Source: a virus | Taxonomy: Duplodnaviria > Caudoviricetes | DNA: 64,000 bases | Reading direction: 5' to 3' (one strand) | Virus record (IMG/VR): IMGVR_UViG_3300020050_009209 | Notes under the pieces: generated by a model | What the model was told of the DNA's origin: nothing | Seen by the model: the letters and a program-made list of their open reading frames with translations, nothing else | Database searches by the model: none | In this document: positions 4,533-59,943 of the stretch, piece after piece | Numbering within the stretch: position 1 is the first letter of the stretch | How the letters are laid out: each line of letters begins with the position of its first letter | Made by a program: the position numbers and the translations under genes

Positions 4533-5285
4533 ATGCCCAAAGATCCAGCTCCAGTAGAGGCTACAGTAGTTATTGTCATCTACTGCCACATACATCGAGA
4601 GTCTGGAAAAAGGTACGTTGGGCAGACCCGTCTAACGATGCGACGACGATGGCTGCAACACCTTGGTTGTGTCCGTCGTGGCTCTACTTACTTTTTTCAC
4701 GCAGCAATCCGTAAGTATGGTGCTGACGCGTTTGATCACATCGTGCTTGAGGGAGTTGACTCTGAAAAGGCCGCCAACGAGGCCGAGAAACGTTGGATTA
4801 CGCTATACAAGTCCAACAATAGTGCGTTTGGGTACAATCTACATTCGGGGGGTGGAGGAGCAGCAAGAGATCCAAGCCCAGAAGGGGGACTGCGACGATC
4901 TCTTATCGCAAAAGCACGCGAAGCAGCTATGACCCCCGAGCAGAAAACAGCTCGGGCAATGCGTGGTCTTGCAGGTCTGTCGCCAGAGCAACGCAGCGAA
5001 ATTGCTCGGCGACGTGAAGCCAATAGGACCCCAGAAGCACGCTCACGGAGCATGCGACATGCCCGTCAAGCTCAAAACCCAAAACCCAGGAAAGAGCCTA
5101 CACCTCGCAAACTATTAACGCCGGAACAGCGTAGAGAAGCGATCCTATTGCGTGAGGCAAGGAAAACGCCGGAACAACGCAGTGAGGCTGTAAGAAAAGG
5201 TCACGCAAAGCGAACACCGGAAGCCAAAACCGCTGCCGTACAGAGAATGGTTGAAGCTAAACGCAAGGCACTCAAGATCGGATGA
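4533..5285 (+). CDS. GIY-YIG homing endonuclease, free-standing
   Basis: VIY...RYVGQT...R..QH, EKRWI, GYN motifs; C-terminal [TS]PE[QA]R/K basic repeats. Confidence 0.85.
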   Translation: MPKDPAPVEATVVIVIYCHIHRESGKRYVGQTRLTMRRRWLQHLGCVRRGSTYFFHAAIRKYGADAFDHIVLEGVDSEKAANEAEKRWITLYKSNNSAFGYNLHSGGGGAARDPSPEGGLRRSLIAKAREAAMTPEQKTARAMRGLAGLSPEQRSEIARRREANRTPEARSRSMRHARQAQNPKPRKEPTPRKLLTPEQRREAILLREARKTPEQRSEAVRKGHAKRTPEAKTAAVQRMVEAKRKALKIG

Positions 5286-29793: not shown

Positions 29794-31509
29794 TCACTTC
29801 ACATGCTTTGCGAGATAGCTAAGAGCTAGCTTCTTAATGTGCCCTGGGTCCACCTGAAGCCGTTCGAGCAGGTCTCCCTCCTCTGGTTTGAGGGCTCCGT
29901 CCAGTTGCTGGAGCTTCAAACCTAGGACCTCGGATACGATAGGGTCAGACCCTGTATTGGCAGTGAGGTAGTAAGCTACCACGGGATTACCTTGACCATC
30001 TCGATAGACTCTAGCCAGACACTGATCCATTACACCAGGAGACCAGTCCAACTCCGCAAATACGACGGTACTGCATTTGAATTGTAGCCCGTCCAACCCA
30101 GCCCCACTTCGTAGGGACATGAGAAGGATCTGACTATCCCCATCGCAGAATGCCTTCTTAGCTCTCTCTTTTTGACCTACCGTCTCAGACCCCGTGTAGA
30201 GTAGGGGATTGAACTCCTTTAGGCGATCTAGAAGGATGCTGTACACCTCTCGATGCCAAGCGAAAACAAGGATCTTCTCCCCACTCTCAGCTAACATCTT
30301 CACGAACTCCGCAACAAATGGAGCCTTTGCCACTCCTGTTGCTTGTCGGAGCTTGTTGGATAGCTCCTCAGAGGCGAGCATCTTGGCTCCCTTCTTGACC
30401 TCTTTCTCCCCAAGGATGATTCGAGCAAGCTCCATGCAAGCATCATTGACCTTGTTGAGTGCCTCAGGGTTTGCGTCTACCGTATGCTCAATCTTCTGTA
30501 GAGCTGGTAGCTCTCTCGCAATGTCCTTGCGTGTTCTCCGTAGCATCATCCCAGAGCCTCGAAGATACTCTCCAAACGCCTTTGGCGAGGCTAGCCTAGG
30601 CTTATCTCCATAGGTGTGAGAACACCACTCCCGAGTAAACTCCTCGAATGACCCGAGTTGGCCAGGGAACAGGATGTTCAGAACAGCGTAGAACTCACCT
30701 CCATAGTTGAAGATAGGAGTAGCGCTCAAACCGCTACGGTATTGAGCACTTTCCGCAAGCATTGCCGCTGCCTGGTACTTCGCTGGAGTCTTCGATCCAA
30801 ACCCAGACCTTAGCTCTTGAATCTCATCGAAAATGACAGACTTCAATCCCGACTCGGATAGCGTGTGAGCCCAACGGGCCAGCTTCGCGTAATTCAGGAT
30901 GGTAACGTCAGGAAACTGAGGGGCAATCTTGTACTTCTTCGCTACGGCCTTTGTCAGGTCGTAGGGGTTACCTACCTTAACCACATGAGTCTTCAACTGA
31001 GGTAGGAAGCGATTGACTTGCTCTTCCCACTGAGGCGGAAGACTGGTCATCGTAACTACCAACGCTGGAAGGGTCTTGGCGTCACTGAGGGTACAGAGCG
31101 CTGATACTGTCTTTCCCGTGCCAAGATCGTCAGCTAGGAGCAATGCTCCTGTAGACAGAATCAGGTCTCCAGCAATCTTCTGGTAGTCCCTGGGGGGTAG
31201 GGCCAAGTCAAAGCTACGAGTTGTTGACGGGTTCGCTAGGAACCTCTGAACGAGACTCTCTTTTTCCTTGTGTACGGAGGACCGACCCTGAAGACGCTCA
31301 AGATCTAGAGCGGACACCTCGTAGGGCTCATATCTAGAGATGAACCATTCCAAGTCTCTTGCGGTCTCGGGGGAGTCACTGAGGTGAAGGGCCTTACTAG
31401 GCCCTTGCTGGGCCTTCGAGAAGACCCGCTTTGCTCGCATCAAGATGTGGGGTGGGGCCTCTAGAATCCACTCTTTTTTCTTGACGCCATAGCTTAGCTT
31501 CACAACCAA
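29794..31509 (-). CDS. SNF2-family helicase
   Basis: LADDLGTGKT, DEIQE, SATP..N, LRR.R, G.GLDGLQ, Q...R..R.GQ. Confidence 0.9.
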   Translation of the reverse strand: MVVKLSYGVKKKEWILEAPPHILMRAKRVFSKAQQGPSKALHLSDSPETARDLEWFISRYEPYEVSALDLERLQGRSSVHKEKESLVQRFLANPSTTRSFDLALPPRDYQKIAGDLILSTGALLLADDLGTGKTVSALCTLSDAKTLPALVVTMTSLPPQWEEQVNRFLPQLKTHVVKVGNPYDLTKAVAKKYKIAPQFPDVTILNYAKLARWAHTLSESGLKSVIFDEIQELRSGFGSKTPAKYQAAAMLAESAQYRSGLSATPIFNYGGEFYAVLNILFPGQLGSFEEFTREWCSHTYGDKPRLASPKAFGEYLRGSGMMLRRTRKDIARELPALQKIEHTVDANPEALNKVNDACMELARIILGEKEVKKGAKMLASEELSNKLRQATGVAKAPFVAEFVKMLAESGEKILVFAWHREVYSILLDRLKEFNPLLYTGSETVGQKERAKKAFCDGDSQILLMSLRSGAGLDGLQFKCSTVVFAELDWSPGVMDQCLARVYRDGQGNPVVAYYLTANTGSDPIVSEVLGLKLQQLDGALKPEEGDLLERLQVDPGHIKKLALSYLAKHVK

Positions 31510-50408: not shown

Positions 50409-50861
50409 ATGACGATGACGAAGGATGAGCTGCTTGCGGGTATCGAGAAGAAGGTTGCCGACCTGGCCGTGATTGCGGCCACGAAGGCTCGGGTGGAGGG
50501 GCAGGAGAAGGCCCTCATTGCTGAGCTGCTTGCGGCTCACGGAAAGGGACCCCACATGGTGGGGGGTAAGCCCAAGTTCATCTTCACCAGCAAGACAGGG
50601 ACCGTGTACATCTCGGACCCTCGCGGTACCGCGAAGGGCGTCAAGCGAGGCCCCCGTAAGGGCAAGTCGGTTCCCCCGGCGGCTGCTGCCGAGGTTACCG
50701 CTCCGGTTACCTCCCCTGAGGAGGAGGCTCCTGAGGAGACTGAGGAGGAGGCTCCTGAGTCGGGGGGCTTCACGGCTGAGCAGCTGGCGGACAAGCCGGA
50801 GGATGCCTTTGAGGGCTCGGAGGAGGATGAGGACCCTCTCGCTGGACTGGACCTCGACTGA
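50409..50861 (+). CDS. protein with basic N-terminal half and acidic tail
   Basis: AAGGAG SD; class I motif at 50360; hairpin after the stop. Confidence 0.75.
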   Translation: MTMTKDELLAGIEKKVADLAVIAATKARVEGQEKALIAELLAAHGKGPHMVGGKPKFIFTSKTGTVYISDPRGTAKGVKRGPRKGKSVPPAAAAEVTAPVTSPEEEAPEETEEEAPESGGFTAEQLADKPEDAFEGSEEDEDPLAGLDLD

Positions 50862-50872
50862 GATGATGGCTG

Positions 50873-50902
50873 GGTAGGAGAGCTGTAACGCTCTCCTACC
50901 TT
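50873..50902 (+). terminator. hairpin after acidic protein gene
   Basis: GGTAGGAGAGC-tgtaac-GCTCTCCTACC-tt. Confidence 0.55.
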
Positions 50903-50903
50903 C

Positions 50904-51010
50904 CTTAGAGGGTAGGAGACTGAGCACACTGCATGGTGACCTAGGAGAGCTAGGTACGGCTTGTTGTGTGGCCTGTGAAACACGGTGTGCTCATTCTCCT
51001 GCCCTCTAAG
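50904..51010 (+). ncRNA. structured RNA motif, copy 1
   Basis: ~27-bp closing stem and 3-way junction; covaries with copy 2. Confidence 0.75.
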
Positions 51011-51029
51011 ACACGACTAATCAACACCT

Positions 51030-51112
51030 GCCGAATCGCGAGGCCGCAAGGCCGTAAGGGCGACCCTCAGATGGCCAAGAGGGGACCAGGTTCAAGCCCT
51101 GGATTCGGCGCC
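51030..51112 (+). ncRNA. non-canonical tRNA-like element
   Basis: Acceptor GCCGAAT/ATTCGGC; T-arm CCAGG-TTCAAGC-CCTGG; CCCTC/GAGGG stem with 10-nt loop. Confidence 0.65.
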
Positions 51113-51123
51113 TCAGGAGCAAA

Positions 51124-51342
51124 ATGCTGTATCTGCTGGAACGTAAGACTAAGGTGATGTACGACCAAACTACGGCTATGGTCATACGCGCAAAAAGCTA
51201 CAAAGACGCTAGAGCAGAGGCTGCATTACAAGCGACGGATGAAGGCCCCTCTGTGTGGCTGGACCCCCACCTCTCTACTTGCCTTAAAATAGCAACAGCA
51301 GGTGTACGTCAGTGTATTCTCGGCTCCTTTAGAGCTGGGTAA
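51124..51342 (+). CDS. small hypothetical protein
   Basis: AGGAG SD; 72 aa between RNA elements. Confidence 0.7.
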   Translation: MLYLLERKTKVMYDQTTAMVIRAKSYKDARAEAALQATDEGPSVWLDPHLSTCLKIATAGVRQCILGSFRAG

Positions 51343-51343
51343 C

Positions 51344-51455
51344 CCTCAGGGGTAAAAGACTGAGCCTATTGCATGGTGTCCTGGGAGACCCAGGGACGGC
51401 GTAAGTATTCTCCGCTCATGAAACACAATAGGCTCGTTCTTTTGCCCCTCTGAGG
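51344..51455 (+). ncRNA. structured RNA motif, copy 2
   Basis: Same core and fold as 50904-51010 with compensatory substitutions. Confidence 0.75.
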
Positions 51456-51469
51456 CCCCAATGCTCTGC

Positions 51470-51689
51470 GGTTACTGCCTAGGTTGCTCTTTCTGCTCCG
51501 AACGTGAGGAGACCCTCTCTGAGAAGCGAGAGCGTACCCGTAGGGAGGATACAGCCCTTCGAGCACAAGGCCTCCCTACCTTCAAAGTGAAGATGAGGGA
51601 GTTCTTCAGGATAAGTCCAGAACGCCCCTCAACGTAAGGTACTGTATGGGAGCTAAGAGCTTCCATCCTCATCTAACTACTGAGTAACC
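51470..51689 (+). ncRNA. unassigned multi-stem RNA
   Basis: GGTTACT/AGTAACC closing pair; GTAGGGAGG/CCTCCCTAC; AGATGAGG/CCTCATCT. Confidence 0.45.
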
Positions 51690-59725: not shown

Positions 59726-59798
59726 GGGACCTTAGCTCAGTTGGTAGAGCTGCGGACTTTTAATCCGTAGGTCGTGGGTTCAAGTCCCACAGGTCCCA
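59726..59798 (+). tRNA. tRNA-Lys(UUU)
   Basis: Full cloverleaf GGGACCT/AGGTCCC; anticodon loop CTTTTAA; no encoded CCA. Confidence 0.95.
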
Positions 59799-59943
59799 CA
59801 AACTGGATACTAACGTAGCGAAGGTGCCTAAGTTAGGACTCCAGCGAGGAGTTACCCGTTCCCACGTAGATAGAGTGCCTCACCCTTCCCCCACTGGACT
59901 TGTGAAGCCCAACCGGATGGTCAATGAGGTACTTAAACGGTAG

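Follow-up and report, generated by a model that had tools for sequence, protein, structure and literature searches.

An apparently undescribed three-way-junction RNA family found between the genes of tailed phages and prophages

Two similar elements in a tailed-phage sequence raise the question of what kind of structured RNA they encode, how far it is distributed, and what it may do between the genes that it separates. The sequence is a 64,000-nt stretch of DNA (IMG/VR record IMGVR_UViG_3300020050_009209), which was analysed whole and is called the window here. A first-pass annotation had placed the elements at 50904-51010 (copy 1) and 51344-51455 (copy 2), both on the + strand, and had described them as having the same fold built from different stems. 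Reading of the sequence gives the same coordinates and strand, and a pairwise comparison agrees with the description, as the copies are 79% identical and their stem differences are compensatory. Copy 1 has a predicted folding energy of -62.4 kcal/mol (z -8.5 against shuffles) and copy 2 of -56.2 kcal/mol (z -6.9), and in both cases the + strand folds better than the - strand. A pattern of three core blocks matches twice in the window and in none of 100 shuffles. The covariance model R1, run over the 64 kb with filters off, likewise returns the two copies only, with 67.8 bits for copy 1 (on 50917-50997) and 74.6 bits for copy 2 (on 51357-51440).

The fold is a three-way junction. In 5′ to 3′ order it is made of a closing helix (P1), a G-C closing pair, a helix P1b, a GUG junction strand, a hairpin P2, an AC junction strand and a hairpin P3. 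P1b is a 4-bp helix, CAUG/YRUG, to which P3 returns without a linker. P2 always has 6 bp and a GAGAN pentaloop, and P3 begins with GG(C/G) and has a loop that varies in length and sequence. A 5-nt AAACA bulge on the 3′ strand follows, and then the 3′ strand of P1. The order of parts first proposed for the element holds for the fold, with the bulge now delimited as AAACA and a flanking G-C pair found to close P1. Two pieces that had been listed separately as TG-CATG and (T/C)(G/A)TG are better described as the strands of P1b, in which CAUG pairs with YRUG over 4 bp. The long closing stem and the GAC-UGAGC stem are also present, but the latter and the outer 16 bp of P1 are specific to this phage and are not features of the family: P1 has 27 and 23 bp in the window, against typically 8-15 bp family-wide by a crude count. 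The family-wide core consists of CAUGGUG, the GAGAN loop on its 6-bp P2, AC-GG and UGAAACA.

In copy 1, whose 50904-51010 span includes the phage-specific outer P1, the 5′ strand of P1 (50904-50931) is divided into an outer section (50904-50919), a mismatch at C50920 and an inner section (50921-50931), and pairs in the predicted fold with the 3′ strand at 50983-51010. The CAUG strand of P1b and the GUG junction (50932-50938) do not vary in the family, and this holds for members that were recovered by the model and not by a pattern. They are followed by P2 (50939-50955; ACCUAG/CUAGGU with loop GAGAG), by the AC junction with P3 (50956-50973; GGC, a 10-nt loop, GCC; 96% paired in the family) and by the P1b 3′ strand UGUG with the AAACA bulge (50974-50982), within which UGAAACA is the form kept in every member found. 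The core of copy 2 (51372-51425) has the same succession of CAUG-GUG, P2 (UCCUGG/CCAGGG, loop GAGAC), AC, P3 (GGC...GCU), CAUG and AAACA. A small ORF that starts at the conserved AUG was considered and rejected, as copy 1 reads AUG GUG ACC UAG.

The fold is not confined to this phage. The viral search pattern ATGGTG-N6-GAGA-N6-9-ACGGC-N8-38-GAAAC matches 63 stretches in IMG/VR, about 57 of them with the full fold, and a slightly stricter pattern matches 20 stretches (about 18 true) in a one-per-species set of bacterial genomes. The bacterial copies belong to Acidobacteriota, Actinomycetota, Verrucomicrobiota, Planctomycetota, Myxococcota and others. A related pattern gives at least 120 matches in metagenomes, on contigs from soil, freshwater and marine samples. 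All 100 metagenome loci that were searched also match R1, which was built from viral and genomic copies only, and in the viral, genomic and metagenomic collections together more than 160 distinct homologues have the fold. Lysogens that carry it include Terriglobus albidus DSM 26559 and Streptomyces triticagri NEAU-YY421. Presence in bacteria is sporadic (3 of 151 sampled genomes in the class of Terriglobus, and one site each in three other bacterial genomes examined), which fits carriage on prophages. Two phages chosen by portal similarity, Brevundimonas phage Polewnik and a Manatee Spring podovirus, lack the element, and a BLAST search of INPHARED with a consensus-like member returns a chance match only. 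The elements of the window apparently belong to a large family of three-way-junction RNAs, 80-110 nt long and not catalogued before, whose carriers are tailed phages and prophages from many bacterial phyla.

Nine of the IMG/VR stretches (L087, L127, L133, L140, L154, L173, L175, L180 and L181) represent one environmental phage lineage in which the motif is identical or near-identical and the order is fixed as large terminase, 92-aa ORF, motif, 75-aa ORF and SU10-type portal. This lineage was recovered from many separate samples and is suited to comparative work. As for the phage of the window, its DNA has no match in INPHARED, its 150-aa protein upstream of the elements has no relative in IMG/VR, and a pattern for its own P1 has no match in the metagenomes. 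Very few of its genes are recognisable: there is a helicase at 29794-31509 (-), and the rest are PHROGs without a known function.

Homologues in this number allow the fold to be judged by covariation. The compensatory nature of the stem changes, first read from the two window copies, extends to the family, in which covariation is very strong and exceeds both shuffled and slid controls. In the set of 54 viral and genomic members, pairing in P2 reaches 98.5% and each of its six pairs has compensatory changes, and double changes occur at all 15 pairs of P1; 78.6% of cells are paired and the covariation score is 0.565. The corresponding values for 103 distinct metagenomic members are 88.4% and 0.728. 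Shuffles score 0.20, with none of 500 reaching the observed value, and sliding the partners gives 0.20 or less. P3 also covaries in the metagenome set, where its third pair switches from G-C to C-G. Many of the ‘invariant’ columns are partly set by the patterns with which the searches were made. Those copies that only the model recovered nevertheless keep AUGNUG, G(A/G)GAN, UGAAACA and the 6-bp P2, and their ACGGC segment varies (ACGGG, ACGAC, UCCGC) with matching changes in P3. In all, about 25 unpaired or junction bases are near-invariant.

The same alignments indicate the strand. G-U pairs outnumber A-C mismatches by 20 to 2 in P2, 41 to 0 in P3 and 17 to 1 in P1b, or about 78 to 3 in total, and this asymmetry fixes the strand of the RNA as +, as had been proposed. 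Long open frames flanking the element favour its own strand in 107 loci and the other in 53. Judged from sequence, in the absence of expression data, the + strand is thus the functional one, and transcription would take place within polycistronic phage messages. With compensatory changes beyond controls and strand-specific wobbles, the element meets the generic test for a structured RNA.

Comparison with Rfam 15 (4227 models) gives no family match to the elements, in keeping with the initial impression that they belong to no known class. At gathering score the only match in the whole window is a tRNA-Lys at 59726, and at E≤10 the element region draws only scattered spurious miRNA-hairpin matches on the long stem. 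Nineteen related loci give nothing at gathering score, 16 further loci give only tRNAs and one group I intron, and weak matches on two loci (L216 and L198) have none in common. The elements fail as tRNAs and as Y RNAs, since they are called neither by ARAGORN nor by the Rfam models for tRNA and Y_RNA. The hammerhead was considered and set aside, as junction strands of GUG, AC and none (3/2/0 nt) map to no type I-III and GAAAC is present only as a bulge five pairs below the junction. The string GAAACA resembles one strand of loop B in the hairpin ribozyme; here it is a simple bulge with no bases across from it, the two internal loops (A and B) on separate arms and the two conserved strands of loop B that define that ribozyme are lacking, and there is no Rfam match. 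No description was found in the literature on portal-associated motifs, new ribozyme classes, RAGATH motifs and phage structured-RNA catalogues, although the more than 10,000 unnamed phage candidates of PMC10690425 were not covered and may include this RNA. The absence of an Rfam 15 match, the more than 160 covarying homologues and the wobble asymmetry together support the first-pass annotation in its proposal of a new phage non-coding RNA family made from the + strand.

What the RNA does has to be inferred from where it lies. The element fills short gaps between co-directional genes, the upstream stop codon being within 10 nt of the modelled start in about one third of sites and within 30 nt in half. 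One copy, for example, is fitted between a terminase gene and a portal gene and leaves gaps of 17 and 7 nt. Neighbours in the IMG/VR sample are often packaging or head genes (SU10-, P22-, HK97- and Mu-type portals, large terminase, protease, capsid), and the order in an Archangium prophage is portal, Bbp19, element, scaffold, capsid. The phi29 pRNA (RF00044) offers a parallel, as it too has a three-way junction on a long 5′/3′ helix with a bulge and the element is often next to portal or terminase genes in that sample. However, the element has no Rfam match, and in metagenomes, which form the larger sample, most neighbours have roles in replication, recombination or lysis (helicases, Erf, integrase, exonuclease VIII, clamp loader, endolysins), so the portal link fails and a role in packaging is not upheld. 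An all-against-all BLAST comparison of neighbouring ORFs links loci within phage lineages only. Position is syntenic and stable within those lineages, and since no protein recurs across them, the element appears to be gene-independent.

This gene-independence weighs on the possibility that the element is a riboswitch aptamer whose ligand is some ubiquitous ion or small molecule. The information content of the core, which is typical of ribozymes and aptamers, would suit such a role, and tandem copies, which occur here, are known for glycine and guanidine-II riboswitches. There is, however, no common function among the downstream genes, and the long P1 is stable at all times, without an alternative expression platform at the window copies. 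A generic riboswitch was rejected on the heterogeneity of the downstream genes, the stability of P1 and the lack of a terminator after the window copies, and an aptamer for a ubiquitous ligand seems to us very unlikely. A long, stable P1 without a terminator or switching platform fits a constitutive module and not a switch.

The surroundings of the two copies in the window provide further evidence. A tRNA-like element (51029-51112, +) and a small gene were said to lie between them, and both are there by sequence, fold and ORF content. The tRNA-like element has a 7-bp acceptor stem (GCCGAAU/AUUCGGC) and a canonical T arm (CCAGG-UUCAAGC-CCUGG) and is without a normal D or anticodon arm. A GGCC-GCAA-GGCC hairpin stands in place of the D arm, a 5-bp stem with a 10-nt loop stands in place of the anticodon arm, and the 3′ terminus is GCC instead of CCA. 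It is called neither by ARAGORN nor by the Rfam tRNA model. The sole standard tRNA of the window is a canonical tRNA-Lys(UUU) at 59726-59799 (+). The small gene is a 72-aa ORF without a family match (51124-51342, +), and copy 2 begins 2 nt past its stop codon (51340-51342).

At both outer flanks the copies touch possible signals. The last four bases of copy 2, GAGG (51452-51455), lie six bases 5′ of the ATG of a 58-aa ORF (51461-51637) and could be its Shine-Dalgarno sequence; as they also form the final four pairs of P1, folding would mask that ribosome-binding site. On the other side, an 11-bp hairpin (50873-50900, +) lies just past the stop codon of ORF 50409-50861 and coincides with a weak R1 match (50869-50904). 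The 10-mer GGGUAGGAGA occurs twice, at 50872-50881 beside this hairpin and at 50910-50919 in P1 of copy 1, and the 3′ arm of the hairpin (50892-50900) could pair perfectly with 50911-50919. The hairpin and the outer P1 of copy 1 would thus be mutually exclusive alternatives. This arrangement may form a switch, or the hairpin may be a stem left over from a third copy that has decayed.

These flanks bear on the idea that the element is a cis-acting platform for a universal host machine, either an RNA polymerase that is made resistant to terminators, as by the put RNA of phage HK022, or a ribosome or ribosomal protein that sets how the following gene is translated. An element conserved in phages whose hosts belong to many phyla needs a partner that is universal, and starts right after stop codons, the possible Shine-Dalgarno sequence in the P1 3′ strand of copy 2 and the terminator-like hairpin just upstream of copy 1 are all compatible with such a role. 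The likeness to put extends to a phage cis-RNA of about 70 nt with two adjacent hairpins, present twice per genome as putL and putR are (PMC9378689), that would act on a universal machine. Yet put is an open V of two stem-loops without a closing helix, promoter-proximal and limited to a few lambdoid phages (PMC9378689), whereas the element is closed by P1, lies deep inside operons, as in the terminase/portal gap above, and spans many phyla. On its closing helix and position, put RNA itself was rejected. The spacing from the element to the next start codon is not constant either, and a simple scan of about 1.3 kb on the downstream side of the window copies reveals no site that resembles a terminator. 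A platform of this general kind is unlikely in our judgement, though it ranks highest among the rivals of the reading that we place first.

Many phages carry the element more than once. Tandem pairs occur at four loci (L185, L218, L230 and L255). The phage represented by L216 and L231 has three copies, a tandem pair and one copy 1.1 kb on, which bracket four small ORFs. Pairs at L251 and L256 are 135-585 nt apart, and the window pair, with 333 nt between copies and 440 nt from start to start, is comparable; more distant pairs are found at L142, L180 and L297. The L231 sequence also contains a group I intron (4651-4859, +; Rfam, 89.8 bits) about 230 nt from the tandem motif pair, on the opposite strand.

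The element might instead act as DNA, be it a miniature mobile element or a single-stranded hairpin that serves in recombination or transposition. The insertion sites do vary, and copies right after stop codons flank small cassette-like genes. However, copies in the same genome have diverged with compensatory changes instead of remaining near-identical, and the syntenic stability within phage lineages speaks against mobility. Conservation lies in interior loops and not at the stem base, which is where integron attC sites are conserved, and no recombinase or transposase recurs nearby. We give a DNA-level element hardly any credence.

Copies that flank small genes may also be recognition or stabilising signals for a host ribonuclease (RNase III, E or P), in which case a protein would make the cut and the structure would define or protect the new ends. 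The RNase III sites of the T7 early genes are intergenic stems that bracket small genes in polycistronic RNA, and the window stems of 23-27 bp are alike in position. A P1 of 27 and 23 bp is enough for RNase III, and the adjacent tRNA-like element would recruit RNase P. The difference lies in the family as a whole, where P1 has only about 8-15 bp on the crude count and the three-way-junction core is invariant; RNase III sites are not known to need such a core. A host ribonuclease signal is accordingly a reading that we hold to be distinctly unlikely.

The tRNA-like neighbour of the window is not an isolated case. A tRNA or tRNA-like RNA is found 3′ of the element on the same strand at four loci, beginning 19 nt away in the window, 2 nt in L146, 105 nt in L129 and 250 nt in L155. 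That of L146 (6819-6910) is a remodelled tRNA-like RNA similar to the window's and directly follows the motif, and in L215 the element lies within a tRNA-like cluster. T-arm signals are about ninefold denser within 350 nt of the element, on the motif strand, although the numbers are tiny (4 distinct arms against 5 elsewhere). This association, together with a position that is independent of the neighbouring genes, is what may be expected of a stable trans-acting RNA, which would be made from any operon that happens to contain it, would inhibit or serve as a decoy for some host protein of wide occurrence, with a role in defence or RNA binding, and would sometimes have a tRNA-like partner. Against it stand the lack of a dedicated promoter or terminator at the window copies (other loci were outside the scan), the usual confinement of the element to a tight gap between ORFs and the absence of a recurring partner protein nearby. 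We rate a trans-acting role as improbable, below a ribonuclease signal.

The association with tRNAs also recalls the HDV-like theta ribozymes, which are found beside phage tRNAs (PMC10879173) and are likewise small phage-borne RNAs next to tRNA genes. Theta ribozymes differ in having a double-pseudoknot HDV fold and a place downstream of the tRNA, whereas here a three-way junction precedes the tRNA or tRNA-like RNA, and no tRNA lies close to the majority of copies.

The reading that we place first, tentatively and in the knowledge that it may well be wrong, is that we are dealing with a new self-cleaving or processing module in the polycistronic RNA of phages. No cleavage, RNA-end or expression data are available for it. 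It is ranked first on several grounds. One is that the element is gene-independent, self-contained and constitutively folded, with much invariant sequence, as small ribozymes are. Another is the habit of occurring in multiple copies around changing genes, which is also seen in prophage hammerheads, where several copies flank single genes or short blocks of inconstant identity (Perreault et al. 2011, PMC3088659). The close packing between genes and the tRNA or tRNA-like RNA that follows at several loci also speak for it. What is observed is a P1-closed junction, a P2 of fixed length, a conserved loop and bulge, the multi-copy habit and a phage-only distribution across many host phyla; the remainder is inferred. 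In the proposed mechanism, P2 would fold back along P1 in such a way that the GAGAN loop meets the AAACA bulge. P2, with its six pairs, is matched by the four pairs of P1b taken together with the bulge, which would give a pre-organised core. A self-contained, gene-independent module would then cut the transcript at its own site, most likely by self-cleavage, and cutting in the window would release an RNA piece with the tRNA-like element and the 72-aa ORF.

In its more specific form, the proposal is that the element constitutes a small self-cleaving ribozyme of a new class, one that is widespread among tailed phages infecting soil, freshwater and marine bacteria and that cuts polycistronic RNA to gene-sized pieces and sometimes frees tRNA-like RNAs. 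We regard this form as possible but doubtful. The argument from genomic habit is one of analogy only. With the prophage hammerhead the element shares a small three-way junction with a conserved junction core, an intergenic place in phage operons and multiple copies, but its core reads CAUG-GUG / AC / CAUG-AAACA and not CUGANGA / GAAA / UH, it has no Rfam match and no cleavage data, and no permuted forms of it are found. A search with the permuted pattern gave only tandem copies and chance matches, and no known ribozyme lies near the element in about 270 kb of loci. The lack of permuted forms, which hammerhead and twister do have, and of neighbouring known ribozymes counts mildly against self-cleavage. 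In the Rfam comparison the core also matches no known ribozyme class.

The element is a genuine, abundant and apparently undescribed class of structured RNA in tailed phages, the function of which is untested. Widespread new RNA folds with some 25 invariant core bases are rare, and only about ten classes of natural small self-cleaving ribozymes are known. The family is abundant, with at least 120 metagenome matches to a very narrow pattern, it spans phages of many host phyla, and the element is small enough for immediate biochemical and structural work. RNA engineering could gain a compact new part from it. Whatever its function, phages insert it between all kinds of genes as an RNA device of general use, and it bears on the processing and timing of phage operons.
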